From Thermoproteota archaeon (GTDB lineage: Archaea > Korarchaeota > JAOZGF01 > JAOZFZ01): 20,103 nucleotides of DNA. The notes below the pieces were generated by a model. It had not been told where the DNA came from. It searched no databases and saw only the letters and a program-made list of their open reading frames with translations. Position numbers and translations under genes: made by a program. The stretch covers positions 1 through 20,103 of the forward strand of contig JAOZFT010000024.1 of the NCBI GenBank assembly GCA_027492035.1, read 5' to 3'. Shown in pieces: positions 306-19,013 of this stretch (position 1 is the stretch's first letter; every line of letters begins with the position of its first letter).

Positions 306-932
306 TTGGGTGAAGATTTAGGTTTTGTTTTCATTGTTCTCTTAACTTTCTTTTTTGTTTTCACTTATCTCTTAGGTAGGAGAGAGAACTTTAAAAGACA
401 GAAAAATTTGTGGAAGAAAATTTCTGTTGCTATTAAGCCTTACTGTAAGAAAGTGAATTTTAAAGGTTTGGGTTCCAGTGCTTTCCAAATAAGTTTACGT
501 AGAAGCCGTCTACCTTTCAAAAAATTTGAATTGATTGTTTCTCTTTTGGACAGGGAAAACATCCTTCATTATTTTTTACTTAAATTGATGAAGAAAACTG
601 ATGAGTTAATTGTGAAAGCAGATTTTGAAATAAAACCCGGTTTTGAATTAGAGGTTTATAAAGGGAAGAGGAGAGTGAAGGAAGGCATGTTTTTTGTTAA
701 ATCAAGTATTTTACCTAGCGGATTCAGAATTTTAACCTCTAACAAAGACAAAGCAGAAAATTTTTTTGTAAAAATCGGCAAGAAACTAAGTAAATGCGTC
801 AACGAAATAGTTTATTTGTCGATTTCACCCGTTTCTCCAACTTTAATATTCACCGTATCCTTGGATGGAAACACTGTAGAGAAAGTTATGCCTGTGATTT
901 TAGAGCTTGGAGAAACGTTCAAGATGCATTAA
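306..932 (+). CDS. Single-pass membrane protein resembling CCDC47/DUF1682 (PAT complex subunit)
   Basis: TTG start after GAGGGGG RBS. N-terminal TM helix followed by YLLGRREN..W, then [26 protein letters not shown] and TLIFTVSL, colinear with CCDC47 blocks as I recall them. The ORF is secure; the family call is by eye. Confidence 0.6.
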   Translation: [208 protein letters not shown]

Positions 933-936
933 GGAG

Positions 937-1470
937 TCAAAGTTGATCATGGCATTTTACAGTTGAAATCAAGGGCATTAAATTGTTAAATGCTTCATCT
1001 GGTTCTTGGTTTGTGGAAAACTCTAAAAATATTGTTCTTGAGGTTTTTTTACATTTGAAAAGAAACTTTACAGTGGTTTCTTTTATTCTTTTCCCAAAAA
1101 ATAGGTTTTTCCTCCTTTCTTTAGCAGAAATATAGTAAACAGCTTCGTGGCTGAACAAGTTGAGACACCCCTTCTTTAAAACATTTTCTTTCTTTGTTTC
1201 TTTTTCCAGCCATTCATTAACCTTGAGTTTTTCATTGTACTTTTTTGTTTTCACCAGTAGAGAAAAGTATTTCTGTTCTGGGAGACGTATTAAGGCTCCT
1301 GTGTATCCTGAGACAGCCCATTTATTTCCTTCAAGTTCAATCCATTCCTCAACATCAGTTCTATAAAACAGGGGGGAGACGCTCCATTCTTCAGGTATTT
1401 TAAAATAGAGAAAAGAAACTTTACCTATTAGAAAATTATCTGTTTCAATTGATACGTTTTTAAGTTCCAT
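937..1470 (-). CDS. Hypothetical soluble protein, possibly PsbP/Mog1/DcrB-like fold
   Basis: 177 aa ORF with ATG start and native-like composition; FKIPEEW near the N-terminus, SHEAVYY centrally, LISTVKCH at the C-terminus. Convergent with 306..932 with a 4 bp gap. Confidence 0.7.
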   Translation of the reverse strand: MELKNVSIETDNFLIGKVSFLYFKIPEEWSVSPLFYRTDVEEWIELEGNKWAVSGYTGALIRLPEQKYFSLLVKTKKYNEKLKVNEWLEKETKKENVLKKGCLNLFSHEAVYYISAKERRKNLFFGKRIKETTVKFLFKCKKTSRTIFLEFSTNQEPDEAFNNLMPLISTVKCHDQL

Positions 1471-1626: not shown

Positions 1627-1887
1627 ATGTCATTCTCAGGTTTGAAAAAGAAAATAAGAGAATTTCTTTTCGGTTTTTTTGTGATGGAACCTCTTTTGAC
1701 AGCTAGAAAAATCACGTTTAAGCTTGAACTTTCCTTTATGTCAGCAGTGGTTGGGGATTTAATAGGGATCCCTCTGTTTTCACCTATTTATAAATTGAAA
1801 CTTTTACCTCACTGGTTTCCCTTAATAACTATTTGGAAAAACAACATATTGAAAGAAGAGGATTTAACTGATAAAATAAGGGGATGA
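1627..1887 (+). CDS. Small CstA/ArsA-associated hydrophobic protein (cory-CC-star-like), paralog 1
   Basis: LELSFMSAVVGDLIGIPLFSPIYKLKLLPHWFP..W motif shared with 1978..2256; GAGG RBS upstream. Confidence 0.75.
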   Translation: MSFSGLKKKIREFLFGFFVMEPLLTARKITFKLELSFMSAVVGDLIGIPLFSPIYKLKLLPHWFPLITIWKNNILKEEDLTDKIRG

Positions 1888-1932: not shown

Positions 1933-1977
1933 AGGGGGATTGTGTAGAAAGAAGAAATAGTGAAGGGTGTTAATGAA

Positions 1978-2256
1978 ATGACCGGAGAAAAAGAAAAGAA
2001 AGGTGTAAGTGAAGTTTCGAAAGCTGTAAAAGAAGTTTTTTATGGAATGGCTTCCCATGCAGTAGTTAGACAAATGATGAAGACAAGAATGTACCTAGAA
2101 CACTTGTTTATGTTAATAACACTGGGAGACATGCTTGGAATGCCAATACTTCCACCTTACTACTCACTTAAACTTCTACCTTATGCATTGCCTAACATAA
2201 AGACTTGGAAGAGAAGATTGTTCAAGGAAAGAGATGTAACAGATATGCTTTACTGA
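1978..2256 (+). CDS. Small CstA/ArsA-associated hydrophobic protein (cory-CC-star-like), paralog 2
   Basis: LEHLFMLITLGDMLGMPILPPYYSLKLLPY..W..R resembles the small proteins encoded between cstA and arsA-like genes. ATG 1978 (after AAGGGTG) preferred over GTG 1960. Confidence 0.8.
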   Translation: MTGEKEKKGVSEVSKAVKEVFYGMASHAVVRQMMKTRMYLEHLFMLITLGDMLGMPILPPYYSLKLLPYALPNIKTWKRRLFKERDVTDMLY

Positions 2257-2273
2257 AAGAAAAGGCGAGAACA

Positions 2274-3284
2274 ATGACTTTGTCAATGAAGAAATACATA
2301 AATCAACACCCAAATTTAAGAGTGATTATTTACGCCGGTAAGGGGGGTTTAGGGAAAACTACTTGCAGCGCCGCGACAAGTTACTGGTACGCTAAACAAA
2401 ACAGGAAAGCATTATGTTTCAGTACAGATCCTCAAGCTTCATTAAGTGACATATTTGAAAAGGATTTATTTGGGAAAGGAGAGCAGAAATTAGCGGAAAA
2501 CCTTTTCGTTGTCGAAATAGATGCTGACAGAAAAATAACTGAATTCCAAGAAGAAGTTAGACAGAAAATAAGAGAAATGTACGGCATAGATGAAATACCT
2601 AAAGAGATAGATGAATATATAAGCACTTCATCTTACGAGCCTGCAATGCATGAAAGTGCAACTTACGACGCCATGGCTGCACTTTTAGCAAGTAAAAAAT
2701 ACGACGTGTATGTCTTTGACATGCCTCCGTTCGGCCACGGAGTTAGAATGATAAGTATGGCAACTATTTTAGATGTTTGGATTGATAAAATGGCTGAAGC
2801 TAGAAAGAAAGCAGCAGAGTATAAGGAAGCTGAAGCTAGGATTAAAGGAGTTTCAGCTGAAGCTGAAGATGCTGTGTTAAATGAATTAGATGAAATTAGA
2901 AGTAAACTTGACTTTTTTAGGGAAACATTAACGAATTCTGAAACAACTGCTTTTTTCATGGTTTTAATACCTGAAAAAATGGCTATTTTAGACACTGAAA
3001 GAGCACTTAAAATGTTTGAGAAACTGGGAATTAAATTAAGCGGAGTGATTGTGAACCAAGTTTACCCTGTTGAACTTCTTGAAAGGAAAGACTTAAGTGA
3101 GTTCCTAAAACATAGAATTGAAATGCAGCAGGGATACTTAAAGGAAATAAGTGAAAAATTTGGTGAACACGTCAGGGCAGTGGTGCCTATGTTCGAAAAG
3201 GAACCTAAAGGTTTGGAAATGATTGGAAGAGTTGCTGAACATTTATTTGAGAAACCTAACCTAGAAGTTTTAAAGAGGGTTTAG
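2274..3284 (+). CDS. ArsA/Get3(TRC40)-family ATPase, subunit 1
   Basis: Deviant Walker A GKGGLGKTT, switch I STDPQASL, switch II DMPPFGH, IVNQV. Start moved from 2205 to ATG 2274 to avoid overlap with the upstream gene. Confidence 0.92.
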   Translation: MTLSMKKYINQHPNLRVIIYAGKGGLGKTTCSAATSYWYAKQNRKALCFSTDPQASLSDIFEKDLFGKGEQKLAENLFVVEIDADRKITEFQEEVRQKIREMYGIDEIPKEIDEYISTSSYEPAMHESATYDAMAALLASKKYDVYVFDMPPFGHGVRMISMATILDVWIDKMAEARKKAAEYKEAEARIKGVSAEAEDAVLNELDEIRSKLDFFRETLTNSETTAFFMVLIPEKMAILDTERALKMFEKLGIKLSGVIVNQVYPVELLERKDLSEFLKHRIEMQQGYLKEISEKFGEHVRAVVPMFEKEPKGLEMIGRVAEHLFEKPNLEVLKRV

Positions 3285-3286
3285 AA

Positions 3287-4309
3287 ATGAGTGAACAACA
3301 TGAAACTTTAAAAGATTTTTTAGGGAAGCACCCAACAGTGAAGTATTTATTTACTGGCGGTAAAGGAGGAGTTGGAAAAACAATTTCAGCAGCTGGTTTA
3401 GCTTATTACTTTGCCTCAGAAGGAGAGAAAGTCCTTTTAGCTTCATTAAACCCTGTACATTCACTTTCAAGTTTATTCGGTCAAGACTTAACAGGTGGTG
3501 CAATTAAACCTATTAACGGCATAAACAACCTTTACGCTATTGAAGTAGATATTCGGGAAAGAGTTAAGAAATACAAGGAACAGCTCTCGGAGAAATTAAT
3601 GTGGTTCATGAAATGGGCAGATATTCCATTAAAAGCTGAAGAATTCGTTGACATTGCTGCTACCAACCCTGCTTTTGAAGAAAGTGCAATGTTTGACAAC
3701 ACAATCGATATAATGTTGAAGGAAAGTGAAAATTTTGACAAAATAGTTTTTGACACTGCAGCAGTGGCTAATGCTGTTAGGCTTTTAGGTTTAAGCAAAA
3801 TATATGGTTTATGGCTTGGAAGAATGATTGAAAGCAGAAAAGAAGCTCTTTCTTTAAGAGTAAAGCTTTCATTCAGGAAGGAAAGAGTTATGGAGGAAGT
3901 TAAAAAGGACCCAATGATGAAGGATTTACTTGATATGAACGAAAGAATAAAGAAAGCAAGAGAAGTATTTAGTGACCCTGAAAAAACAGCTTTCTTCTTT
4001 GTAACACTACCTTTAGCTTTACCTATAGCAGTTGTTGAAAGGTTTATTAAAATGGTTCAAGGATTTGACATACCTACAGGAGGAGTGATTGTGAACGGTG
4101 TTTTAGAGAAAAAACTTGTCTCTGAGGGAAAGGCAACAGAGTACTTAATAAACAAGTTTAAAGAACAGCAGAGATACATGGAAATTATAAAAGAACGCCT
4201 CTGGCCAAGTGTGAGAGCAATTATTCCACTTTACCCAACTGAAATAATAGGGCTGGATATGGTGGGAAAAGTAGCTCAAGACATGTTAAACTGGAAACCT
4301 GAAGCCTAA
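3287..4309 (+). CDS. ArsA/Get3(TRC40)-family ATPase, subunit 2 (degenerate switch I/II)
   Basis: GKGGVGKT, SLNPVHSL (Asn in place of the catalytic Asp), DTAAVAN in place of DTAPTGH, IVNGV; 2 bp after the previous stop. Confidence 0.92.
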   Translation: MSEQHETLKDFLGKHPTVKYLFTGGKGGVGKTISAAGLAYYFASEGEKVLLASLNPVHSLSSLFGQDLTGGAIKPINGINNLYAIEVDIRERVKKYKEQLSEKLMWFMKWADIPLKAEEFVDIAATNPAFEESAMFDNTIDIMLKESENFDKIVFDTAAVANAVRLLGLSKIYGLWLGRMIESRKEALSLRVKLSFRKERVMEEVKKDPMMKDLLDMNERIKKAREVFSDPEKTAFFFVTLPLALPIAVVERFIKMVQGFDIPTGGVIVNGVLEKKLVSEGKATEYLINKFKEQQRYMEIIKERLWPSVRAIIPLYPTEIIGLDMVGKVAQDMLNWKPEA

Positions 4310-4673: not shown

Positions 4674-5339
4674 ATGAATTTAAAGAAGGAATTTCTAAAA
4701 CTGTTGAGGGAAGATGAGGAATTCAAGTACGCCGTAGCAGGTTTCATAGGGATGAATGAAATCCTTAAAAAACTTGACAAACACGAAAGAATCATAATTG
4801 AACTAAGAGAAGACTTTAACACATTAAGAAGAGACTTCAACAGAATGCTTGAAGAAATAAAAATAATTAATCTCAGGTTGAACAGAGTTGAAAAAACCCT
4901 GGAAAAACTTACTCTAGACATTGAGGAAGAGGCTAGATCGATACTGAGTTATAGGCTAAAAAATGAGGGAATAAATATCCAAGTGGAACCTTTAACTTTA
5001 AAGGAAACAGAAATAAACCTTTACGGCGCCTCAAACAATATTTGCGTAATAGGAGAAGCAACAGTTAGGGCAGGATCAAACCTACTGGACGAATTAGAAG
5101 AAAAAATTAAGATTTTACAGAGAAAACACCCTCACCTACTCAAAGGAAAAACTATTTTAGTTATTTACACCTCATTAGCTACACCTGACCTTATAAAGAA
5201 AGCAAAAGAGAAAAAAGTATGGGTTCTAAAAGCCACAGGAGACATTTTTAAACCTGAAAAATTAATGAAGAAACAGCTATTGCAACGTAAAGAAAGAAAC
5301 AAAGAAAACACCAACAGTAAATGCATAGGAAAAAATTAA
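4674..5339 (+). CDS. Archaeal coiled-coil protein with C-terminal restriction-endonuclease-like (PD-(D/E)XK) domain, DUF3782/paREP-like
   Basis: Typical N-terminus LKKEFLKLLREDEEFKYAVAGFIG, heptad coiled coil, then EINLYG...IGEATVR (degenerate nuclease motif). Confidence 0.75.
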   Translation: MNLKKEFLKLLREDEEFKYAVAGFIGMNEILKKLDKHERIIIELREDFNTLRRDFNRMLEEIKIINLRLNRVEKTLEKLTLDIEEEARSILSYRLKNEGINIQVEPLTLKETEINLYGASNNICVIGEATVRAGSNLLDELEEKIKILQRKHPHLLKGKTILVIYTSLATPDLIKKAKEKKVWVLKATGDIFKPEKLMKKQLLQRKERNKENTNSKCIGKN

Positions 5340-5837: not shown

Positions 5838-5893
5838 CTTTTACACTCCAATTAGAGCCTTAATTTTGACTCTGATTGGAGTGCAGAAAAACA

Positions 5894-6718
5894 ATGAATA
5901 GGAACCTAACTTACCTAGATGAATTAGAATCAAAAAGTATTTACATAATAAGGGAGGCATATAGGAGATACAGAGACAAATTAGCTGTCCTTGTTTCTTG
6001 GGGTAAAGATTCCACTACTCTTTTGTATTTAACTAGGAAAGCTTTCTTCGGCGAAGTTCCTATTCCTGTTATGCATATAGATACTTCTTATAAATTTAGA
6101 GAAATTTATGAGTTCAGAAATAGGTTAGTTAAGGAGTGGAACTTAAAGTTATTAATTGCAAAAAATGAAGAAGCCTTAAAACAGGGCATGAGCCCAGGAA
6201 AAGGAAGGTTTCAATGTTGCACAGCATTAAAGACACAGGCTTTGAAGCAAGCAATAAAGAAATTTAAACTTAAGGCTCTGCTTTTAGCTATACGGAGAGA
6301 TGAACATGGAATTAGAGCTAAAGAAAGGTACTTCTCTCCACGTGATTCGCATTTCAAGTGGAACTATTTAAGTCAACCTCCTGAACTTTGGGAGCAATTT
6401 AACCAAGTAACGGATGAAGAAACCCATGTCAGGGTTCACCCTATGCTTCACTGGCTTGAAATAGATATTTGGCGCTATATTCAAAGAGAAAAAATACCTA
6501 TTGTTCCTTTATATTTTTCTGGGGCGAGGAAGCTAGGGTATAGATACAGGAGCATAGGTTGCGAGCCATGCTGTATCCCTATCCCTTCAAATGCTAAGAC
6601 AGTGAAAGAGGTTATAGCTGAACTGGAAAGAACAAACGTCCCAGAAAGAGCTGGAAGAGCTCAAGACAAAGAGAAAATGTACATGATGGAAAAATTAAGG
6701 GCCCTGGGGTACATGTAA
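5894..6718 (+). CDS. cysD: Sulfate adenylyltransferase subunit 2
   Basis: LDELESKSIYIIRE, SWGKDS PP-loop, HIDT, RRDE..RAKERYFS, QPPELW, RVHP, YRSIGC. ATG 5894 (GGAGTG RBS) preferred over TTG 5876. Confidence 0.95.
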   Translation: MNRNLTYLDELESKSIYIIREAYRRYRDKLAVLVSWGKDSTTLLYLTRKAFFGEVPIPVMHIDTSYKFREIYEFRNRLVKEWNLKLLIAKNEEALKQGMSPGKGRFQCCTALKTQALKQAIKKFKLKALLLAIRRDEHGIRAKERYFSPRDSHFKWNYLSQPPELWEQFNQVTDEETHVRVHPMLHWLEIDIWRYIQREKIPIVPLYFSGARKLGYRYRSIGCEPCCIPIPSNAKTVKEVIAELERTNVPERAGRAQDKEKMYMMEKLRALGYM

Positions 6719-7024: not shown

Positions 7025-8217
7025 ATGAATATAGTTATTGTTGGACATGTAGATCATGGTAAATCAACTTTAATAGGGAGACTTCTTTATGACACGGACT
7101 CTATACCTGAGCAAAAACTGGACGAAATAAAACAAACCTGTGAAGCATTAGAGCGTAAAATGGAATTTGCTTATGTAGTTGACGCCTTAGAAGAAGAAAG
7201 AAACCGTGAAATGACAATTGACACAACCCAAACATTTTTTAGAAGCAAAAAAAAAGTTACACCATTATAGACGCCCCAGGTCACAAGGAATTCCTAAAAA
7301 ACATGGTAACTGGTGCTTGCCAAGCAAATGCAGGATTACTTATAGTTGATGTAGAGAAGGGGGTGCAAGAACAAACAAAAAGACACGCTTACATTCTGAA
7401 ACTCTTAGGAATAAATCAACTTATAGTAGTAATTAACAAAATGGATTTAGTTAATTTCAGCAAAAAGAAGTACGAAAAAGTCAAAAAGGAAGTGTTGAAG
7501 TATTTAAAAGAAATTGGAACCACTCCCAACTTTATTATACCGGTTTCTGCCTATTATGGAGACGGTGTAACTAAAAATTCGGAAAGAATACCCTGGTATA
7601 AAGCTGAAACCGTCATAGACGCCTTAGATGCATTGAAAGAGCCTTTTAAAACTTATGATTTCAGACTCCCAATCCAAGACATTTACAAACTTAGTAACAA
7701 AAGAATCTATGTTGGCAACATACTGTCCGGAATGGTTAAGGTGGGGGAAAACGTAAAAATTTTTCCTTCAGGTGAAGAAGCAAAGATAGAGCAGATAATT
7801 ACTTTTGAAGGCAAAATGAAAGAAGCTGAAAAACCTAAAGCAATAGGGGTAACTTTGAACAAGCAAGGGTTCTTAAGAGGAAACGTAATAACTAAAGGGA
7901 AAAAACCCATTGTCACTAACGAAATAGAACCAACTGTTTTCTGTTTACTAAATGAAGTAAAGGAAAAAGAGCAATACATTTTCAGGTGTGTAACCCAGGA
8001 AACTAAATGTAAAATTGAGAGAGTAGTGGAGAAAATCGATGTTAACACTTTAGAGAAAATAAAAAACACAACCGCTTTAAAGGAAACAGAAGTTGGAAAA
8101 GTAAAGATTCACTTAAACAAACCAGTAGTTGTGGAAAAATTCGAAAACTTACCTGAACTAGGCAGGTTTATACTTGAAAAAAACGGAGAAATAGTTGCAG
8201 GTGGAATAATAACATGA
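7025..8217 (+). pseudogene. cysN: Sulfate adenylyltransferase subunit 1 (EF-Tu-like GTPase), split by a 1-nt frameshift in an A9 tract (real or assembly error)
   Basis: GHVDHGKST and TIDT in 7025..7270; [18 protein letters not shown] and NKMD follow in the -1 frame after A9 at 7247-7255. One extra A restores a continuous protein of about 397 aa with no fused CysC domain. Confidence 0.88.
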
Positions 8218-8996: not shown

Positions 8997-10826
8997 TTGT
9001 GCGGAATAGCTGGCTACTACGGTTTAAACAATAAAAACTTACTGGAAAAAATGTGCAAAGTAATTAGACACAGGGGACCTGACGATGAAGGATACTACAC
9101 ATGTTCAAAAATAGGTTTATGTAACAGACGTTTAAGCATAATAGATGTGAAAGGGGGACATCAACCTATACATAACGAAGACGGAACAATCTGGATAACG
9201 TACAATGGCGAAATATACAACTACAAAGAGTTAAGCAGGGAGTTAGAAAAGAGACATAATTTTTACACTAACTCAGACACTGAAGTAATTGTTCACTGTT
9301 ACGAAGAATATGGGGAAGAATTTGTCAACAAATTAAACGGAATGTTTGCTTTCGCTATATGGGACTCAAATAAGGAAGAACTGCTTATTTACCGTGACCG
9401 TTTCGGAATAAAACCACTATATTATTACTATAACGGTGAAAAACTCTTTTTCGGTTCAGAAATAAAAGCAATACTTCAAAGTGAAGAAGTGGAAAGAACC
9501 CCAAACGACAAAGTAATTTATGAATTTCTTGTCCACGGTTGGCACGACCATACAGAAGAAACCTTCTTCAAAGGAGTAAAGAGATTAATGCCAGCACATT
9601 ACCTAAAAGTAAACAGTAAAGGATTAAAAATTAGAAAGTACTGGGAAATAAAGAAACTAAACCAAAAAATAGAGTCCAAAGAGGAGAAAGACAAAGAACT
9701 AACTGAAAAATTCTACAACTTATTCCTAGATTCAGTAAAGAAAAGACTTATAAGTGAAGTCCCTGTAGGAACGTGTTTAAGCGGCGGAATGGATTCTTCA
9801 TCCATTGTATGCATAATAAATAAACTCTTAAGGAAAGGAATAAGCAAAGAAGTTATAGGGGAGAAACAAAAAACTTTTTCAGCAGTCTATAAAGAAAAAG
9901 AAGCAGATGAAACCCCCTATATTGAAGAAGTTATTAAGTTCACAAACTCAGAAAAAAACTTCACCCACCCAAACGCTGAAGAACTCTGGAAAGAACTTGA
10001 CAAAATAATATGGTACCAAGAAGAACCTTTCGGAAGCACAAGCATTTATGCTCAATGGTGTGTAATGAAAGAAGCAAGCAAAAAAGTTAAAGTAGTACTT
10101 GACGGGCAAGGAGGAGACGAATTACTTGCAGGATACACTCACTACTACATATACTTCCTAAAAGATTTACTGAAACAAAAAAGAATCATTCAGTTCATAA
10201 AAAACTTCTTCTTAGGTTTAGACCTCTTCTACAAAGACATACTGCACCACCTACTTAACAAAAGAAAAGAGAAAAAACTTATACAGGAAATGTTGAACAA
10301 AGAATTCATAAAGAAATATAAGGGTGAAGTTAAAACACCATGGAAAATCAAAAACTTAACAACTTACCTTCTAAATTCATTAACACAAATAAGTATACCC
10401 CACCTTTTAAGGTATGAAGACAAAAACGCAATGGCACACTCTATAGAATCAAGGGTACCTTTCCTAGACCACAGACTCGTAGAATATGTTTTCAACACAC
10501 CGGAAAACCAAAAAATAAGAAACGGATGGACAAAGTACATTCTGAGAAAAGCCATGAAAGGGGAGATACCCGAAAAAGTAAGGAAAAGAAGGTCAAAACT
10601 AGGATTTGCAACTCCGGAAGTAAAATGGCTCAGGGAATTAAGTAAAGAAATAATTGAAACCTTCGAAACAGAAACGTTCAAACAAAGAAAGTACTTTAAC
10701 CAAGAAAAGGTAACTAAAAATTTTGAGGAGTTTGTGAAGGGGAAATTTACACTGCAACACTCAATATTCTGGCGAGTAGTAATACTTGAAAAATGGCTAA
10801 ACCTATTCATAGATGAGAAAAAGTAA
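8997..10826 (+). CDS. asnB: Asparagine synthase (glutamine-hydrolysing) family amidotransferase
   Basis: MCGIAG Ntn N-terminus (TTG start, AAGGAG RBS), HRGPD, RRLSIID, NGEIYN, LSGGMDSS, GQGGDEL, ESRVPFLD. Confidence 0.95.
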   Translation: MCGIAGYYGLNNKNLLEKMCKVIRHRGPDDEGYYTCSKIGLCNRRLSIIDVKGGHQPIHNEDGTIWITYNGEIYNYKELSRELEKRHNFYTNSDTEVIVHCYEEYGEEFVNKLNGMFAFAIWDSNKEELLIYRDRFGIKPLYYYYNGEKLFFGSEIKAILQSEEVERTPNDKVIYEFLVHGWHDHTEETFFKGVKRLMPAHYLKVNSKGLKIRKYWEIKKLNQKIESKEEKDKELTEKFYNLFLDSVKKRLISEVPVGTCLSGGMDSSSIVCIINKLLRKGISKEVIGEKQKTFSAVYKEKEADETPYIEEVIKFTNSEKNFTHPNAEELWKELDKIIWYQEEPFGSTSIYAQWCVMKEASKKVKVVLDGQGGDELLAGYTHYYIYFLKDLLKQKRIIQFIKNFFLGLDLFYKDILHHLLNKRKEKKLIQEMLNKEFIKKYKGEVKTPWKIKNLTTYLLNSLTQISIPHLLRYEDKNAMAHSIESRVPFLDHRLVEYVFNTPENQKIRNGWTKYILRKAMKGEIPEKVRKRRSKLGFATPEVKWLRELSKEIIETFETETFKQRKYFNQEKVTKNFEEFVKGKFTLQHSIFWRVVILEKWLNLFIDEKK

Positions 10827-10892: not shown

Positions 10893-12824
10893 ATGTGCGG
10901 CATATGCGGCTTCGCTTTTGAAGATAAAAAACTAATAAAGGAAATGTGCAATATTTTTAAAGCATAGGGGACCTGACGATAAGGGGTATTTCCTAGATAA
11001 AGGAATATCTTTAGGGAACACAAGATTAAGCGTAATAGATTTAGAAACAGGGAAACAACCTATTTACAATGAAGACGGTTCAATGGTGATTGTGCAAAAT
11101 GGAGAAATTTACAATTATAGACAAATCAGGAAGGAACTTATCAATTTAGGGCATTCATTTTACACAAAATCAGATACAGAAGTTATACTCCACGCTTATG
11201 AGGAATGGGGAACCAAAGCACTTAATAAACTCAATGGAATGTTTGCATTTGCAATATGGGACTCCAACAGAAAGGAATTATTCCTAGCCCGAGATAGATG
11301 CGGAATAAAACCTTTATATTACACCTTAACAAAAAACAAAACCCTTCTTTTCGCTCAGAAATAAAAGCCTTACTTTTATATGAAAAAATTAAACCTAAGC
11401 TAAGTTTAGAAGGACTTCACTATTACTTAAACCTCCGATTCTTACCTGGAGAAGTAACAATGTTTAAAGGAATCAAGAAACTTTTACCTGGCCATTACCT
11501 CTTATATAAATTATCAAGCAAGAACATGGAAGTAAGTAAGTATTGGGAAGTAAAGGTTTCACCGGAGGAGCATACCGAAAGTTTTTTTGTTAAGAAGTTA
11601 AGGGAAATTTTGAAAGAATCTGTAAAAAGACACCTTATAAGTGACGTCCCTGTTGGAATATATCTTTCTGGAGGCATAGACAGCAGCTCAATAGTAGCTT
11701 TTGCTTCGCAAGTGTCAGAAGAACCCGTTAAAACTTTTACAATGGGATTCAATGAACCCTCAGATGAATTAAGAGACGCTAAACAAGTGTCAGAATTTTT
11801 TGAAACTGAACACTATGAATTAGTAATAGACTCTGATTTGATGAAAGATTACCCTGCTATGATATGGTACGCTGACACACCGAAAAGAAACCTTTACCCT
11901 TACTACATCGCCAAAGTTGTAAGGAAACATGTAAAAGTAGTTCTTGGAGGACTTGGAGGTGATGAACTTTTCGCAGGTTACGAATGGAAATACCAATTCG
12001 CAGAAGATACTACGGAAGAGCGTTCAAAAATACCAAACAACCTCAAATTCTCGCTTAGAAAAGAAATTCCAGAATTCATAAAGTATGTAACAAGGTATGG
12101 TTCACTTCATGAAATAGACCTTATCCACAATTTAAGGAGAGCAGCATACATAGACAACGATGTCAAACAGTACCTGCTCATAATGAGCTTAGATGAAGTC
12201 TATGAAAATAATTATTTGAAAGAGAAAATATATGGCGAAGAAATTCAGAAAATTAAATTACCGCAACTAGAAGATATATTTAAGCCATTTTTTGAAGATA
12301 ATAATCTTAACTTAATTGATAAAATTCTTCTTGCAGATTTTAAAATTAAAATGGTGGATGATTTTCTTTTTGTGGAGGATTCAATGTCCTCCGCTAACTC
12401 CTTAGAGTCAAGAGTACCTTTTTTAGACAAAGAACTTGTGGAATTCGTTTTTACTATACCATCAAGGTTTAAATACAGAGAGGGAAGAGGGAAATATATT
12501 TTTAAGAAAGCAATGCAGGGAATATTACCTAAAGAAGTAATAAAGAAAGAAAAACAAGGATTTAGCAGTGACGTAGTAATTAGATTTGAAAGAGAAATAC
12601 GGGAAATAGCAAAACAAATTCTAATGAATGGATACTTAGTAAAGGATAATTTAATTAAGGGGGGCTACATAGAGAATATACTTAATTACAGAACTTCTCG
12701 CAGCTTAACTAAGCATTACATTACAGTATGGAATCTCTTAACCCTTGAAATATGGTATAGAATGTACATTAAACAAGGAAAAATTCCAAAACCTCTTACA
12801 CTAAATAAATTGGAAGCAATTTAG
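10893..12824 (+). pseudogene. asnB: Second asnB-family amidotransferase with two frameshifts (+1 near 10954-10958, -1 near 11355)
   Basis: ATG 10893 gives MCGICGFAFEDKKLIKEMCNI; removing one T from T5 gives LKHRGPDD..RLSVID..QPIYNEDG, joining ORF 11083; adding one T at gct/cag gives FASEIKA, joining ORF 11298 (LSGGIDSS, GLGGDEL, ESRVPFLD). Confidence 0.88.
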
Positions 12825-13751: not shown

Positions 13752-14528
13752 TTGAAGATAAAAAACTTTGAAAAATTAATAGTTCCTGAGAGAGAACCTA
13801 AACCTAGAAGTAAAGGAATAACTATGGTGTTAGATAAAAACCTTGGGTTAAGAGGAATAAGAGACTTAGTTGAAACTGCCGGGGAGTACATAGACATTAT
13901 GAAGTTTGGTTGGGGCACAACACGGATGTTACCCAAGAGATTATTAAAGAGTAAAATAAGGATTTTAAGGGATAATGAGATAGAGGTATGCAATGGAGGA
14001 ACATTAACAGAATTTGCATTTTTACAAGGTAAATTTAAGGATTACCTAGGTGAAATGGCAACAATGGGTTATACGGTGGTTGAGATTTCAGATGGAACCA
14101 TAAATATGGGCTATGAAGAACGTTTGGAACTTATAACCCAAGCAAAAGAGCAAGGGTTTAAAGTTGTTACTGAAGTAGGCAAGAAAAGCCCTTCAGAAGA
14201 CTCCAAACTAACTGTACAAAAAAGGGTAGAACTGATAAAGAGAGACTTAAAGATGGGAGTAGATAAAGTTGTTTTAGAAGCTAGAGAAAGTGGAACTGTA
14301 GGAATTTTCGACAATAGGGGGGAAGTAGTTATTCCGAGGGTGTTATCCATAATTAAAAGCGTAAATGTTAATGATTTAATATTTGAAGCCCCTAAAAAAA
14401 AGCAACAAGTATATTTAATCTTAAACATAGGTCCTAATGTGAATTTAGGAAACATCAGCCCTTTAGATGTGATATCCGTTGAAACATTAAGGAGGGGACT
14501 TAGAGGAGATACATTTGGTAAGGTGTAA
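13752..14528 (+). CDS. comA: Phosphosulfolactate synthase
   Basis: KPRSKGITMVLDK, KFGWGT, GGTL, EISDG, EVGKK, EARESG, FEAP, VNLGNI, ETLRRGLRGDT. Confidence 0.96.
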   Translation: MKIKNFEKLIVPEREPKPRSKGITMVLDKNLGLRGIRDLVETAGEYIDIMKFGWGTTRMLPKRLLKSKIRILRDNEIEVCNGGTLTEFAFLQGKFKDYLGEMATMGYTVVEISDGTINMGYEERLELITQAKEQGFKVVTEVGKKSPSEDSKLTVQKRVELIKRDLKMGVDKVVLEARESGTVGIFDNRGEVVIPRVLSIIKSVNVNDLIFEAPKKKQQVYLILNIGPNVNLGNISPLDVISVETLRRGLRGDTFGKV

Positions 14529-15171
14529 AATAAGTTTCAATGTGAAAAGTATCGGGAAAGATGACACTGTTGTGGTTGTTGATGTTTTACGTGCTACTAG
14601 CACTATTGTTACAGCTTTGGCCAATGGTGTAGAGGAGATCATTCCTGTAAGTTCTATTGATGAAGCTTTTAAACTTAGAAGGAATGGTTATTGCTTAATT
14701 GGGGAAGAAAAAGGTGTGAAAATAAAAGAATTTGACTTTAGTAATTCACCTACTGAAATAATGCAAAATCCTTGTAAAAAAATCGCTTTAAAAACTACAA
14801 ATGGAACAAAAATTATTAAGGAAGTAGAGGAAAGGACAAACCAGGAAGTATTTATGGGCTCAACATTAAACCTTTCTTACTTAGCTGAAAGACTTAAACA
14901 AACAGAAAAAATAAACATAATAGCTGTGGGAGGGAGGAAGGGATTCATAGAAGATTTAGCAGTAAGTATAGCTTTATTTACTAAATTGCAGAATTTACCT
15001 TTGAAGAAGGAAATTGTTAAGGAATTAATTATTAATTCAGAAGCAGCGAAACATTTAGCTAAAATAGGTTACTGGAAAGACGTTGAATTTGTTCTTCAGA
15101 TAGACCTATACCCAATTGCCCCTATTCTAAAAAAGGGAAAAATAGTTTTGGAGCAAAGCAGCTACAAGTGA
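14515..15171 (+). CDS. comB: 2-phosphosulfolactate phosphatase
   Basis: VVVDVLRATSTI, GE..G..FDFSNSP, TTNGT, IED; overlaps comA by 14 bp. Confidence 0.93.
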   Translation: MVRCKISFNVKSIGKDDTVVVVDVLRATSTIVTALANGVEEIIPVSSIDEAFKLRRNGYCLIGEEKGVKIKEFDFSNSPTEIMQNPCKKIALKTTNGTKIIKEVEERTNQEVFMGSTLNLSYLAERLKQTEKINIIAVGGRKGFIEDLAVSIALFTKLQNLPLKKEIVKELIINSEAAKHLAKIGYWKDVEFVLQIDLYPIAPILKKGKIVLEQSSYK

Positions 15172-15177
15172 ATAGAA

Positions 15178-15669
15178 ATGGGGGAAATTGACAAGGAAAT
15201 AGTTAAGTTTTTGGTGGAGTCAGGTATAGACTTCGTTTGCAGCGTGCCATGTATGCTTTTGAAAGGAATACTGGAAGAAATAGAGAAGACAAACTTGAGA
15301 CATGTTAGAGTCAACAGGGAAGAAGAAGGAGTGGGAGTATGCGCAGGAGCGTACTTGGCCGGTAAGAAACCAGCATTAGTAATTCAAAATTCAGGTTTAG
15401 GTAACTCAATAAATGCTTTACTTTCCCTTACAAAGTTTTATCGTTTAGGGTTATTTATTTTAATGAGCCATAGAGGAGATAAATACGAAAAAATTAAAGC
15501 GCAGGTTCCAATGGGAGAGGCAACACCCAAATTGTTAAAGCTCTTAAACATCGAATATGCCAAAGTTACGGAGCCAAACCAATTGTTTCTGATAAAAAAC
15601 CTTGTTAAGAAAGCATTTAAAGAAGAAGACATTAAAGCTGTTTTACTTTCAAGGTCGTTATGGCTATGA
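15178..15669 (+). CDS. comD: Sulfopyruvate decarboxylase alpha subunit
   Basis: SVPC, REEEGVGVCAGAYLAG, QNSGLGN, SHRG..E..AQVPMG; in an operon with comAB. Confidence 0.94.
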   Translation: MGEIDKEIVKFLVESGIDFVCSVPCMLLKGILEEIEKTNLRHVRVNREEEGVGVCAGAYLAGKKPALVIQNSGLGNSINALLSLTKFYRLGLFILMSHRGDKYEKIKAQVPMGEATPKLLKLLNIEYAKVTEPNQLFLIKNLVKKAFKEEDIKAVLLSRSLWL

Positions 15670-16214
15670 AGAGAATAGATGTTATAAGGGAAATTTCTAA
15701 AAGGAAAGGATTAATAATTTGTAATTTAGGATTTCCTAGTAGAGAACTTTATAGCATAAAGGATAAAAATACAAATTTTTACATGTTAGGCTCAATGGGA
15801 ATGGCTAGTTCCATAGGGTTAGGAGTTGCATTGTGCCAAAAAGAAAAAGTTTACATTATTGAAGGTGACGGTTCAATACTTATGAACTTAGGGTCCCTAG
15901 CCACAATAGCAGCCTACGCAACACCTAACTTAAACTTAATAGTAGTGGACAACGGGGTTTACGGTTCCACAGGAAAACAACCAACACACACAGCTAAAGT
16001 GGCAGATTTAAAAAAGATAGCTAAAGGAGCAGGAAATAAAAAGGTTTTTGAAGTAAAGTCGATAGAGCAACTTAAAGAAGCCTTAGAACAAGGTGGGCCT
16101 CTTATTATTGTAGCAAAAGTAAACCAAGAATCAAAAAAGGTACCTGAGGTACCTCTTGAAGCTGAGTTTATAAAGAAAAGATTTATGAACGCTATTTATG
16201 AATTAAATAAGTAA
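15666..16214 (+). CDS. comE: Sulfopyruvate decarboxylase beta subunit (TPP-binding)
   Basis: NLGFPSREL, FYMLGSMG, GDGSILMN..DNGVYGSTG.Q TPP motif, IKKRF; ATGA overlap with comD (alternative ATG at 15660). Confidence 0.94.
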   Translation: MKRIDVIREISKRKGLIICNLGFPSRELYSIKDKNTNFYMLGSMGMASSIGLGVALCQKEKVYIIEGDGSILMNLGSLATIAAYATPNLNLIVVDNGVYGSTGKQPTHTAKVADLKKIAKGAGNKKVFEVKSIEQLKEALEQGGPLIIVAKVNQESKKVPEVPLEAEFIKKRFMNAIYELNK

Positions 16215-17996
16215 ATTGTTTAGGGAACTAAGCTTTAACGATTTCAATTTTTCAGTTGAGGGTTTACCAGTAATTCTGTCCCAATTCCTTATTTTGTAAT
16301 ACTTTCTAAGCATGAAATTAACATCCGGCACCTTATTCTTAGCTCCTCCTTCCCTTAAAGGTTTCAAAAAAATGGAGGGGAGATAATCATCCCTAGCATT
16401 AATTCCAAGTTTATTGTTTAATAACCTTTTCAAGTTAAATATCCTTTCCCCGATCAGAAGCAAGTCTTGAACAGTGATTCTCCATCCCATTAAACAATTA
16501 AGAGCTTCAGTTATTAATTTTGGTGATATTACACAGAATTGACATAGAATCAGGGAATTATAGATACTCATCCAATTCTGAGTTTTAACTGTAGTTTCTG
16601 CCTTGCCTTTTTCAGAGAATCTCTCCCCTGGATAGATTCCAATTTCAGGTATTTCTTTACCCATATCTACTTTATGCATATCACCTTGCAAATGACAAGC
16701 CCCTCTCGGTGAAGTCGCGTAACAGAGAGCCATTCCAAAAAAGGCGCGTGGATCATGAAAAGGCACTTCTAAGCCTTTAACCTCTGCTGCAAATTTTTGT
16801 AACCCATGTCTTAATTGAAGATTGGAAGTTCCTTCAGCTAAAGAATCACCGAAACCTTTACGGTAAGCTATCTGTGTTATAAGCGCTAAAACAGTGTCAA
16901 TATCGCCCCATTTCAATGTTACACCACCTGTTTCACTTTTACTGATTTTTCCAGTTTCAAAAAGGTAGGTGGCGAAAGCAATAACGGAACTACAGCTAAT
17001 GGTGTCTAAACCCATTTGATTGCATAAATAATTAGCATGAACAATTTTTTCAAGGTTCTGATTCAAAAAGAGCGAACCGAAACCACAAATTGTTTCATAC
17101 TCCGGAGCATCAATTAAAATAAATTTTCCGTTCTTTTTCAACTTAACAATTTTTCCGCAAGCAATTGGACAGTAAAAACATGCCTTGCTTCCCACAACTA
17201 GTTTCCTTAAAGCATCCTTACTTATCAATTCACTTTCAAATTTTCCTTGTAGGAAATATTTGTTAGGCATATCTCCAAGTTCTTGTGCAACTTCCACTAA
17301 CCAGCTTGTCCCATATTTACGCAAAATATCACTGGAGGGGTTATTTCGAATTTCCGTCACAAATTTTTTTATAATAGGTTTAATTTCTGGCTTAATGGGT
17401 TTCTTCTCAGGTTTAGGTATTATAATTGCCTTTAATTTTTTAGAACCCATCACCGCACCTAAACCTGTCCGGCCAGCAGCTCTACCGCCATCAACAATAA
17501 TTGAAGCGAATTTAACAAGGTTTTCACCTGCAGGTCCTATACTCGCAACACTAGCGTTTTTAAGGCTGAGGTCTCTCAATATTTCGTTTTGAACATCTAG
17601 AGCTCCAAGACCCCAGTATTCAGTTGCATCTAATATTTCACTTCCCTTTTCTGTAATTTTAAGCATTACTGCACTAGACGGCTTACCTGTAATAAAAATG
17701 CCGCTAAAACCTATAAATTTAAGATATGACGCAAATTTGCCACCTACACTGGATTCTGCCCAAATATGTGTAAGAGGAGACTTAGAAGTTACTGAGCATT
17801 TACCGGAGCAAGGAAGCCCTGTACCTGTAAATGGACCTGTTAAAAAAAGTAAGGGAGCCTCAGCATGGAAAGGAGAAAGTGAAGACTTAATTTTCCCGAA
17901 AAGAAGGCGAGCTGCTAAGCCGCTTCCACCCAAAAATTTTTTATAAAATTCACTATTAAGGTGAACTATTTTAGCTTGTTTATTCCCCAGATCCAC
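16203..17996 (-). CDS. aor: Aldehyde:ferredoxin oxidoreductase family (tungstopterin, 4Fe-4S)
   Basis: KSPLT, IGPAGEN, AAGRTGLGAVMGSKKLKAI, CFYCPIACG, EYET, GLDTIS, DPR, RGACH. The true start may lie upstream near 18032 (see findings). Confidence 0.93.
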   Translation of the reverse strand: MDLGNKQAKIVHLNSEFYKKFLGGSGLAARLLFGKIKSSLSPFHAEAPLLFLTGPFTGTGLPCSGKCSVTSKSPLTHIWAESSVGGKFASYLKFIGFSGIFITGKPSSAVMLKITEKGSEILDATEYWGLGALDVQNEILRDLSLKNASVASIGPAGENLVKFASIIVDGGRAAGRTGLGAVMGSKKLKAIIIPKPEKKPIKPEIKPIIKKFVTEIRNNPSSDILRKYGTSWLVEVAQELGDMPNKYFLQGKFESELISKDALRKLVVGSKACFYCPIACGKIVKLKKNGKFILIDAPEYETICGFGSLFLNQNLEKIVHANYLCNQMGLDTISCSSVIAFATYLFETGKISKSETGGVTLKWGDIDTVLALITQIAYRKGFGDSLAEGTSNLQLRHGLQKFAAEVKGLEVPFHDPRAFFGMALCYATSPRGACHLQGDMHKVDMGKEIPEIGIYPGERFSEKGKAETTVKTQNWMSIYNSLILCQFCVISPKLITEALNCLMGWRITVQDLLLIGERIFNLKRLLNNKLGINARDDYLPSIFLKPLREGGAKNKVPDVNFMLRKYYKIRNWDRITGKPSTEKLKSLKLSSLNNLLI

Positions 17997-18284: not shown

Positions 18285-19013
18285 GTGGGGATACTGTTAA
18301 GAATTGATGTGGACAACCCGTACGGCTACAGTGACCTGTTAAGGAAAACATTTAATTTCTTTGCATTAAACTATTTTTTCCCGCCTTTGCCTAAGTTACA
18401 CCTTTCTAATTTTAAAAAGCTTCTTGAAGATTTAGAAGATAGAGGGATCCCAGTTAATTTCTTCTTTAAACCTAAAACTTTACCTTCTAAAGAATTATCT
18501 GTGCAAATAATTAAAAGAAACGAAGTAGGCCTACATGCAGTTCAAGTGCACACTTTCGAAAAATTTGAGGAAGAACTAAAAAAGGTCAATGCCAGATTTG
18601 GAAATAAAGTAAGGGGGTTCAGTAAACACGGACACTGGAGAAATTGGGTGGGCGAAAGAGGCTCTGTACCAGGATATAACCCAAACAAACTTTTAAAATA
18701 CGCAAGGAAGGCGAAACTGAAATATTTTGCAGGGAATTATGAAAATCCAACATATAAACCTGAAATCGTGCAGGGAGTGCATTATTTCCCCTCTGCATTT
18801 TGGCTAAATGAAAGATTCAGAAACAAAAAATTCACGTTAAATTGGCTCTTCCAAAACAGTCAAGTAAGAGATATAGTGGTGCTTATGCATCCTTGGGAAT
18901 GGGTTACATTAAAACAGGTAAGGGAAGCATATGAAAAAATTTTAACAAAGACTGAAACTTTCAAAAAATTCAGCGAAGTAAGTGACAGCTTTAGAACTTC
19001 ACCGAAACTTTAA
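18285..19013 (+). CDS. Polysaccharide deacetylase (NodB/CE4-like) family protein
   Basis: LRIDVD, FFF, EVGLHA, SKHG, LMHP motifs; GTG start after GAGGG. Confidence 0.7.
   Translation: MGILLRIDVDNPYGYSDLLRKTFNFFALNYFFPPLPKLHLSNFKKLLEDLEDRGIPVNFFFKPKTLPSKELSVQIIKRNEVGLHAVQVHTFEKFEEELKKVNARFGNKVRGFSKHGHWRNWVGERGSVPGYNPNKLLKYARKAKLKYFAGNYENPTYKPEIVQGVHYFPSAFWLNERFRNKKFTLNWLFQNSQVRDIVVLMHPWEWVTLKQVREAYEKILTKTETFKKFSEVSDSFRTSPKL

Follow-up and report, generated by a model that had tools for sequence, protein, structure and literature searches.

A prokaryotic CCDC47-like membrane protein is genomically coupled to Get3-type ATPases in archaea

To our knowledge, CCDC47 (PF07946, previously called DUF1682), which forms part of the PAT complex in the multipass translocon, is treated as a eukaryotic translocon component. 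Get3 ATPases seize hydrophobic transmembrane segments and pass them to a membrane receptor. The available portions of PMC9630114 and PMC13261788 describe CCDC47 as working with Asterix at the translocon of the endoplasmic reticulum (ER) in membrane-protein biogenesis. Archaeal homologues of Get3 that bind tail-anchored proteins exist, according to the accessible part of PMC6593721, and that part names no archaeal membrane receptor for Get3. Here we analyzed a 20,103-nucleotide stretch of DNA (the window) from a Thermoproteota archaeon (contig JAOZFT010000024.1 of assembly GCA_027492035.1), which encodes a CCDC47-like protein of 208 residues at positions 306..932 on the + strand. This open reading frame (ORF) very probably encodes a true prokaryotic homologue of the CCDC47 core, that is, its transmembrane helix and membrane-proximal cytosolic domain. 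What is new here is that the CCDC47-like gene is coupled to genes for Get3-type ATPases, by both synteny and co-occurrence. The source assembly holds 1.87 Mb in 42 contigs and is 93% complete, and its class and phylum are represented by 3 and 43 species genomes, respectively.

The closest relatives of the window protein by structure are CCDC47 chains. An AlphaFold2 model, built template-free from a 149-sequence family alignment (A2, described below), had a mean predicted local distance difference test score (pLDDT) of 96.0 and a predicted template-modelling score of 0.90. When this model was compared with the Protein Data Bank (PDB) by Foldseek, the top matches were 7tm3_4 (E 2.5e-8, template-modelling score 0.78 on the query), 9i78_4 (E 2.2e-7) and 6w6l_7 (E 7.4e-5), followed by trehalose monomycolate transport factor A (TtfA, 6t84; E 5.4e-4), with all else at E >0.05. 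VIA-align of the top Foldseek matches placed 7tm3_4 first as well, at Z 18.4 (root-mean-square deviation [rmsd] 2.2 Å, 205 aligned residues, 14% identity), ahead of 9i78_4 (Z 15.2), 6w6l_7 (Z 12.7) and TtfA (Z 11.1, rmsd 3.7 Å, 152 aligned); the next match after TtfA scored Z 7.4. Residues 135-396 of 7tm3_4 superpose on model residues 3-208 with the transmembrane helix in register, and the alignment is collinear across its 205 residues, with identity to the CCDC47 chains at 12-14%.

A scan that did not depend on Foldseek, covering 48,161 representative chains, gave the same ranking: 7tut_4 (Z 18.4, 205 aligned, rmsd 2.2 Å), 9i78_4 (Z 15.2) and 6t84 (Z 11.1), then the C-terminal domain of MotA (Z 8.0), with type III secretion chaperones and YbjN-like proteins at Z 5-7. 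The PDB label of 9i78_4 is CCDC47; 7tm3_4, 7tut_4 and 6w6l_7, which are translocon chains, we take to be CCDC47 by their residue numbering. The matched CCDC47 structures were released between 2019-12 and 2025, and the AlphaFold2 training cut-off, which we take to be 2018, is older than all of them. A preliminary description of this ORF, made from the sequence alone, had proposed a minimal archaeal homologue of CCDC47; on the structural side the proposal holds, since CCDC47 chains were the top PDB matches and the best unrelated fold reached only Z 8.0 among the 48,161 chains.

A route through sequence profiles leads to the same family. A word-indexed protein search with the window protein returned two relatives only. 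The three-sequence profile made from the window protein and these relatives was scored against 1.84 billion cluster representatives and matched 155 of them at E<=1e-3, nearly all 200-240 residues long. Alignment A2, with 149 sequences, was built from 150 of the 155 matches minus P0142 (476 residues), a zona-pellucida-repeat protein by Pfam, and P0043 (4333 residues), which had no aligned stretch. Twenty-one of the 149 A2 members matched PF07946, the Pfam family of CCDC47 (profile length 326, gathering cut-off 27.7 bits), at E<=0.01, with a best E of 3.3e-8. P0066, in a first sample of 10 members, scored 29.1 bits and so lies above the cut-off, and residues 19-218 of P0027 match profile positions 7-227. 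DUF3137 (PF11335) was matched by two A2 members (best E 1.6e-7) and an unrelated domain by one; a superfamily uniting CCDC47 and TtfA may also include bacterial DUF3137.

The second step of this route passes through longer archaeal relatives of ~265-308 residues, whose long, K/E-rich C-terminal tails recall the coiled coil of CCDC47 (loci L088, on contig C48 of genome G277; L089, in genome G315; and L093-L104). A profile of nine such long forms (A9) aligned with A2 in hhalign over 190 columns (probability 98.7%, E 2.2e-16), and L088 itself (299 residues) scored 35.0 bits on PF07946 (E 1.2e-8), covering positions 8-314 of 326. An L088-type gene is present in 13 of the 14 genomes of the L088 family, within L088's own phylum. 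The A2 family is thus tied to the tailed archaeal forms and the tailed forms to Pfam CCDC47, so that the sequence route agrees with the structural one.

The window protein begins at a TTG codon and consists of an N-terminal transmembrane helix and an alpha/beta domain that is predicted to be cytoplasmic. Its layout is as the preliminary description had it, an N-terminal helix plus a globular domain without the acidic lumenal N-terminus or the C-terminal coiled coil of CCDC47. That description had also listed blocks matching human CCDC47 in order along the protein, and the collinear 205-residue structural alignment at 14% identity would fit weak blocks of this kind. The helix is single and strongly hydrophobic and spans residues ~6-24 (nucleotides ~321-377), and the alpha/beta remainder is confidently folded. 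Only five residues precede the helix, leaving no acidic lumenal or extracytoplasmic N-terminal region, and the protein stops at residue 208, aligned to residue 396 of 7tm3_4, and so has no coiled coil. An N-terminal hydrophobic 19-mer occurs in 137 of the 149 family members, and in 136 of these 137 there is more positive charge in the 15 residues after this segment than before it (means +3.6 vs -0.9). By this enrichment across the family, the protein is predicted to cross the membrane once, N-out/C-in, and to expose its domain to the cytoplasm. Motifs conserved in the family alignments are G-R/K-x-x-N after the helix, LGSSxF, LLDRENxxHY, D99...K104A and S-I-S-x-x-x-P-H-L. Two candidate expression signals of the gene, as read from the sequence, lie upstream of the TTG on the + strand: AAATTTTAAA at 261-270, an AT-rich box, and GAGAGGGGGA at 291-300, which is rich in purines.

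The A2 query matched at least 353 clusters (clustered at 90% identity). Those that carry a name from their source are all labelled 'hypothetical protein', and precomputed Pfam domains are absent throughout; the named clusters come from Chloroflexi/Chloroflexota, Anaerolineae and Thermoanaerobaculia metagenome-assembled genomes. The nearest clusters in the ESM Atlas belong to Chloroflexota, Methanobacteriota and Thermoproteota. We also searched 401 archaeal genomes, 43 from the window's own phylum and 358 from elsewhere, with the A2 profile and with a profile of the small protein family introduced below (sm98). The CCDC47-like family was found in 51 of the 401, comprising 22 of the 43 genomes in the own phylum and 29 of the 358 elsewhere, and in one archaeal family of complete ~2 Mb genomes, possibly Thermococcales, 17 of the 18 sampled genomes carry it. 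With 155 cluster representatives and 22 own-phylum genomes behind it, the ORF is real and conserved beyond chance. We conclude that the CCDC47-like family is prokaryotic and not purely archaeal. The proposal of an archaeal homologue of the CCDC47 core is therefore upheld as to homology, through the fold and the profile chain, but not as to a restriction to archaea, because the family has members in Chloroflexota and Acidobacteriota. It is plausible that the archaeal CCDC47-like protein is relevant to the origin of the ER machinery.

Two genes for Get3/ArsA-type P-loop ATPases lie close to the CCDC47-like gene in the window. ATPase 1 (2205..3284, + strand; PF02374 E 1e-73, TIGR00345 236 bits) has no CxxC motif, and its real start is probably at 2274 or 2286, past the sm98 stop. 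Its closest solved relatives are the single-domain 3zq6_A (E 4.1e-62) and 3ug6_A (E 1.6e-54), followed by eukaryotic Get3/ASNA1. The depositors of 3zq6 and 3ug6 name them arsenical pump-driving ATPases; both are archaeal homologues of Get3 that reportedly bind tail-anchored proteins. ATPase 2 (3287..4309, + strand; PF02374 E 4.7e-57, TIGR00345 197.9 bits) is a paralogue of ATPase 1 with 30% identity and zero cysteines, and matches 5zme, 3ug6 and 3zq6 in the PDB.

Two small paralogous genes, 37% identical at the protein level, lie upstream of the ATPases on the + strand: sm86 (1627..1887, 86 residues), with a moderately hydrophobic centre, and sm98 (1960..2256, 98 residues), with the core LFMLITLGDMLGxPILPPYYSLKLLPY..P.IK.WKR.L..ERD.TD. 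The identity of sm98 across genera reaches 93%, a conservation far above that of its neighbours, and sm98 distantly matches the NCBIfam 'cory-CC-star protein' model NF041419 at E 1.5e-8 and 34.5 bits (cut-off 80). A moderately hydrophobic, tail-anchor-like G-D-M-L-G-x-P segment lies ~30 residues from its C-terminus, and sm98 may be a client, a plug or a subunit of the Get3-type ATPases. We considered sm86 and sm98 as Asterix-like transmembrane partners and set them aside on their hydropathy maxima (1.63 and 1.42) and the lack of a match to PF03669 at E<=1. Relatives of sm86/sm98 occur in L023-L034, L041-L051 and L078-L092.

We compared CCDC47-like loci by calling ORFs in the fetched flanks and matching them by blastp or by hidden Markov models made from the first loci. 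Among 21 sources from the own phylum, 13 had a Get3/ArsA ORF, 17 an sm86/sm98 ORF and 13 an ORF related to orf177, the gene convergent with the CCDC47-like gene in the window. The corresponding numbers were 5, 9 and 9 for 11 metagenome contigs, and 11, 11 and 2 for 15 loci from other archaeal families. The own-phylum sources with no ATPase are contigs of 1.8-4.7 kb (L007, L012, L039 and L040), contigs that end ~1.4-1.8 kb from the gene (L032 and L035), the locus of a divergent paralogue (L037) and one locus with full flanks (L036). All six metagenome loci with no ATPase are contigs of 1.7-6.9 kb ending near the gene, and in the other families the ATPase is missing from L085, L088, L089 and the 4.6-kb contig of L087. 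The short CCDC47-like form adjoins one or more Get3/ArsA ATPases and a CC-star-like protein in at least 11 archaeal genome families. Gene order varies: L078-L083 have a single ATPase in the order sm98>ATPase>CCDC47-like, ATPase 2 overlaps a co-directional CCDC47-like gene in L028, and L033 has a convergent arrangement. That linkage is kept despite such rearrangement argues for functional coupling. Thus, the neighbourhood survey suggested in the preliminary description returned recurrent Get3/ArsA ATPases (13/21, 5/11 and 11/15 loci) together with sm98-family neighbours.

Co-occurrence across genomes points the same way. The sm98-family profile was positive in 46 of the 401 archaeal genomes. 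Both genes were found in 43 genomes, the CCDC47-like gene only in 8, sm98 only in 3 and neither in 347, such that sm98 accompanies the CCDC47-like gene in 43 of 51 genomes and the reverse holds in 43 of 46 (Fisher p 6.6e-46, a value inflated by shared ancestry). At least 12 genome families carry both. The eight genomes with only the CCDC47-like gene include G277 and G315, which have tailed forms, two weak matches and one 63%-complete genome. The sm98-only genomes, as judged with the A2 profile, are G193 and G269, both of family f88, and G231, and these may hold a more divergent membrane partner.

Taken as a whole, the best explanation, and in our judgment a moderately probable one, is that the homologue of the CCDC47 core is a membrane-anchored member of a Get3-type module for targeting or chaperoning membrane proteins. 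The narrower proposition that the CCDC47-like protein has a biogenesis role coupled to Get3 is evenly balanced. Under this proposal, the protein would sit at the cytoplasmic face of the membrane and provide a docking site or a chaperone platform for the Get3-type module, whose task would be the post-translational targeting or chaperoning of membrane proteins. In the window's phylum, the short subfamily is also coupled to orf177, with its predicted Mog1/PsbP fold. The fold also resembles that of secretion chaperones, suggesting that the CCDC47-like domain may bind extended or hydrophobic polypeptide. The analysis establishes the ORF, its family and fold, the chain of homology, the predicted topology, the synteny and the co-occurrence, and we infer a physical interaction of the CCDC47-like protein with the ATPases and a part for it in membrane-protein biogenesis. 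When residues 24-208 of the CCDC47-like protein were offered as the partner of ATPase 1, ATPase 2 and sm98 in complex prediction, the scores were 0.27 and 0.23, short of the 0.32 mark, and these scores carry no weight either way on binding.

Several results count against this proposal. On the side of homology, the window protein matched zero Pfam families at E<=1 and zero NCBIfam families. Across the 43 own-phylum genomes PF07946 gave one sub-threshold match (19.5 bits), at the locus of a family member. Against PDB sequences, hmmsearch with A2 found CCDC47 only as 9i78_4, at E 1.9 and in the transmembrane region, the long-form profile A9 found no CCDC47 match, and phmmer of the window protein, P0066 and L088 did not find CCDC47. 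A search with A2 for relatives of 448-2000 residues, the length of eukaryotic forms, returned none at E<=0.01. The profile comparison that the preliminary description had called for thus gave a divided answer, with 21 of 149 members and L088 matching PF07946 but the window protein itself matching no Pfam profile.

On the side of the role, gene linkage alone does not demonstrate binding. The tailed L088 and L089 do not adjoin Get3/ArsA genes, and their genomes, G277 and G315, have no sm98; as the most CCDC47-like archaeal forms thus have neither Get3 neighbours nor sm98, the link to Get3 may be confined to the short subfamily. The short form also has no ribosome-reaching coiled coil, and its genomic ties are to Get3-type ATPases and not to anything PAT-like. 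The Asterix family PF03669 had no match at E<=0.1 in the source genome, which is 93% complete, a weak negative given that 14 control genomes were equally silent. Lastly, BagAB, a related mycobacterial Get3-like pair, is reportedly linked with tolerance of glycerol and nitric oxide and not with protein targeting (PMC10597346).

Among the alternatives, the one that survives best would make the protein the equivalent of CCDC47 at a co-translational translocon, guiding or shielding multipass proteins beside SecYEG and a YidC/Oxa1-like insertase, with the Get3 neighbourhood reflecting a shared regulon only. The layout of helix plus domain and the fold do superpose on CCDC47 within ribosome-translocon structures, the predicted orientation is cytoplasmic, and the K/E-rich tail of the longer archaeal relatives is CCDC47-like. 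The window protein, however, has no coiled-coil tail, secY, secE and yidC-like genes were not noticed among the annotated genes of the window, and the linkage that is tight and withstands rearrangement involves Get3-type ATPases; the silence of the Asterix search adds a little to this, weak as it is with controls silent too. We therefore consider this alternative unlikely.

The immediate neighbourhood raises another possibility, that the protein anchors to the membrane a BagAB-type, Get3-like module for stress response or detoxification, which would handle small molecules or damaged proteins and not target newly made membrane proteins. Two paralogous ArsA-family ATPases and a CC-star-like protein resemble the actinobacterial bagA/bagB arrangement, and the neighbouring orf177 has invariant His and Cys residues. 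Yet the Get3/TRC40 model TIGR00345 and the chains 3zq6 and 3ug6 are far nearer to the ATPases than BagA or BagB are, leaving this alternative quite unlikely.

We regard it as improbable that the protein is a TtfA-like accessory subunit dedicated to one membrane transporter or lipid exporter and lacking any general role in protein biogenesis, although TtfA is the next-best structural match (Z 11.1, 152 residues). TtfA has the same layout, with an N-terminal transmembrane segment at residues 2-24 and an essential conserved region at residues 1-205 (PMC6593404, in the portion available). In the ESM Atlas the nearest named clusters, which serve as leads only, are a CCDC47 cluster at 0.78 and, nearly level with it, a TtfA cluster at 0.77. 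The CCDC47 match is nonetheless clearly better (Z 18.4 vs 11.1), the Pfam signal is to PF07946, and no transporter gene is conserved next to the CCDC47-like gene, its conserved partners being ATPases and small proteins that are soluble or weakly hydrophobic. That the likeness to CCDC47 arose by convergence on a common chaperone-like alpha/beta fold is scarcely credible: although identity is only 12-14%, and the Z 5-8 matches (type III secretion chaperones, YbjN-like proteins and the C-terminal domain of MotA) indicate a widespread fold type, Z 18.4 lies 10 units above these weaker matches with the transmembrane helix in register, a chain of sequence profiles joins the family to PF07946, and architecture and topology are identical.

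The gene next to the CCDC47-like ORF, orf177 (937..1470, - strand), is convergent with it and encodes a soluble protein of 177 residues with no Pfam and no NCBIfam match. Its AlphaFold2 model (pLDDT 92.8) predicts a fold like that of Mog1/PsbP/DcrB/Eag (DUF1795), and Foldseek matched BT_1490, PsbP, DcrB and SciW/EagT6 (E 5.3e-4 to 3e-2, template-modelling scores ~0.45-0.5). The matched Eag/DUF1795 chaperones SciW and EagT6 were solved with effector transmembrane segments bound. In an alignment of 16 homologues, H108, C140, T143, R145, C173 and the C-terminal H174 are invariant or nearly so, and the conserved His and Cys residues suggest a possible metal site.

The remainder of the window, whose G+C content is ~30-37% and in which an Rfam scan found zero families at gathering score, carries genes of other kinds. 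An ORF at 4674-5339 (+, 221 residues) has no Pfam family and no NCBIfam match, and none of the other loci compared holds a relative of it; another at 18285-19013 (+, 242 residues) likewise has no Pfam family. A PAPS-reductase-family (CysD-like) gene at 5876-6718 lies upstream of an EF-Tu-family GTPase whose coding sequence is broken into two ORFs that lie in separate frames (7025-7270 and 7303-8217, +). Together these look like the CysD and CysN of a frameshifted sulfate adenylyltransferase, which could be a pseudogene or reflect an assembly error. An intact asparagine synthase of 609 residues (8997-10826) adjoins a frameshifted paralogue, whose glutamine amidotransferase (GATase) ORF (11083-11364) overlaps the synthase ORF (11298-12824, +) in a different frame. 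Coenzyme M biosynthesis genes occupy 13752-16214 (+), with ComA phosphosulfolactate synthase, ComB phosphatase and a split thiamine pyrophosphate (TPP) enzyme resembling ComD/ComE, and are followed by an aldehyde:ferredoxin oxidoreductase gene (16203-17996, -). The presence of these genes suggests methyl- or alkyl-coenzyme M metabolism in the source lineage.

In the literature on CCDC47 and archaea, as far as its text was available, we found no description of a prokaryotic CCDC47 homologue. The accessible portions of the DUF1682 literature found concern plants, and we found no paper joining TtfA and CCDC47. The word 'Asgard' was not found in the available text of the PAT/Asterix/multipass-translocon literature searched, and CCDC47 was not mentioned in the accessible part of a 2026 preprint on Asgard-eukaryote structural clusters, as judged by a term search. 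Supplementary lists of eukaryotic signature proteins, for example those of the Asgard papers cited in PMC11186639, might list archaeal CCDC47/DUF1682 already. Public domain databases may also tag the tailed archaeal forms already, since L088 exceeds the PF07946 threshold.

A large unannotated prokaryotic family with the CCDC47 core fold would give this PAT-complex subunit a prokaryotic ancestry. The Get3 linkage addresses what receives archaeal Get3 at the membrane and makes a specific hypothesis testable, and the presence of the family in 17 of 18 genomes of one archaeal family with complete genomes offers an experimental handle. A broader scenario, which we put forward as possible but doubtful, is that the CCDC47 fold is an ancient prokaryotic biogenesis factor that first served Get3-type ATPases. 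The short form would then be the missing receptor or platform of archaeal Get3, eukaryotic CCDC47 would derive from a tailed archaeal variant that moved to the co-translational translocon, and TtfA would be a diverged assembly chaperone for MmpL3. The result suggests a new view of TtfA, an essential partner of MmpL3, which is described as a therapeutic target in the part of PMC7458404 available.

Comparison with the known systems sets the CCDC47-like protein apart from each of them. Get1, which belongs to the Oxa1 superfamily, has three transmembrane segments and a coiled coil on the cytosolic side. The likeness of the window protein to Get1/Get2 (WRB/CAML) lies only in the proposed role, that of a membrane partner for a cytosolic Get3-type ATPase; with one transmembrane helix and an alpha/beta domain unrelated to Get1/Get2, it is not a member of that family. 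BagA and BagB with the 'cory-CC-star' protein (NF053622, NF053621 and NF041419) share with this locus two paralogous ArsA-family ATPases and an sm98-like protein, but the matches of the window ATPases and sm98 to these models all fall far below the equivalog cut-offs. CC-star genes reportedly adjoin ATPases in actinobacteria, and we know of no CCDC47-like or TtfA-like gene in the BagA/BagB operon.

TtfA (6t84) is prokaryotic, shares the fold, and has an N-terminal transmembrane segment followed by a conserved domain of ~180 residues, according to the portion of PMC6593404 available, which also describes its complex with the multipass transporter MmpL3. PF28092, given by the ESM Atlas as the TtfA family, does not appear among the matches of the 149 members to a Pfam copy that may not include it. 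TtfA works with MmpL3 in mycolate producers, whereas the window protein is archaeal and Get3-linked, and its fold match to TtfA is much weaker than that to CCDC47. We know of no description of a coupling of CCDC47 to Get3-type ATPases. With CCDC47 the window protein shares the single transmembrane helix and the cytosol-facing alpha/beta domain, together with a sequence-profile signal that is weak but recurrent. It is ~57 residues shorter within the aligned span (205 vs residues 135-396), scores below the PF07946 threshold, and has neither the acidic lumenal N-terminus nor the coiled coil, and the short subfamily to which it belongs is genomically coupled to Get3-type ATPases.

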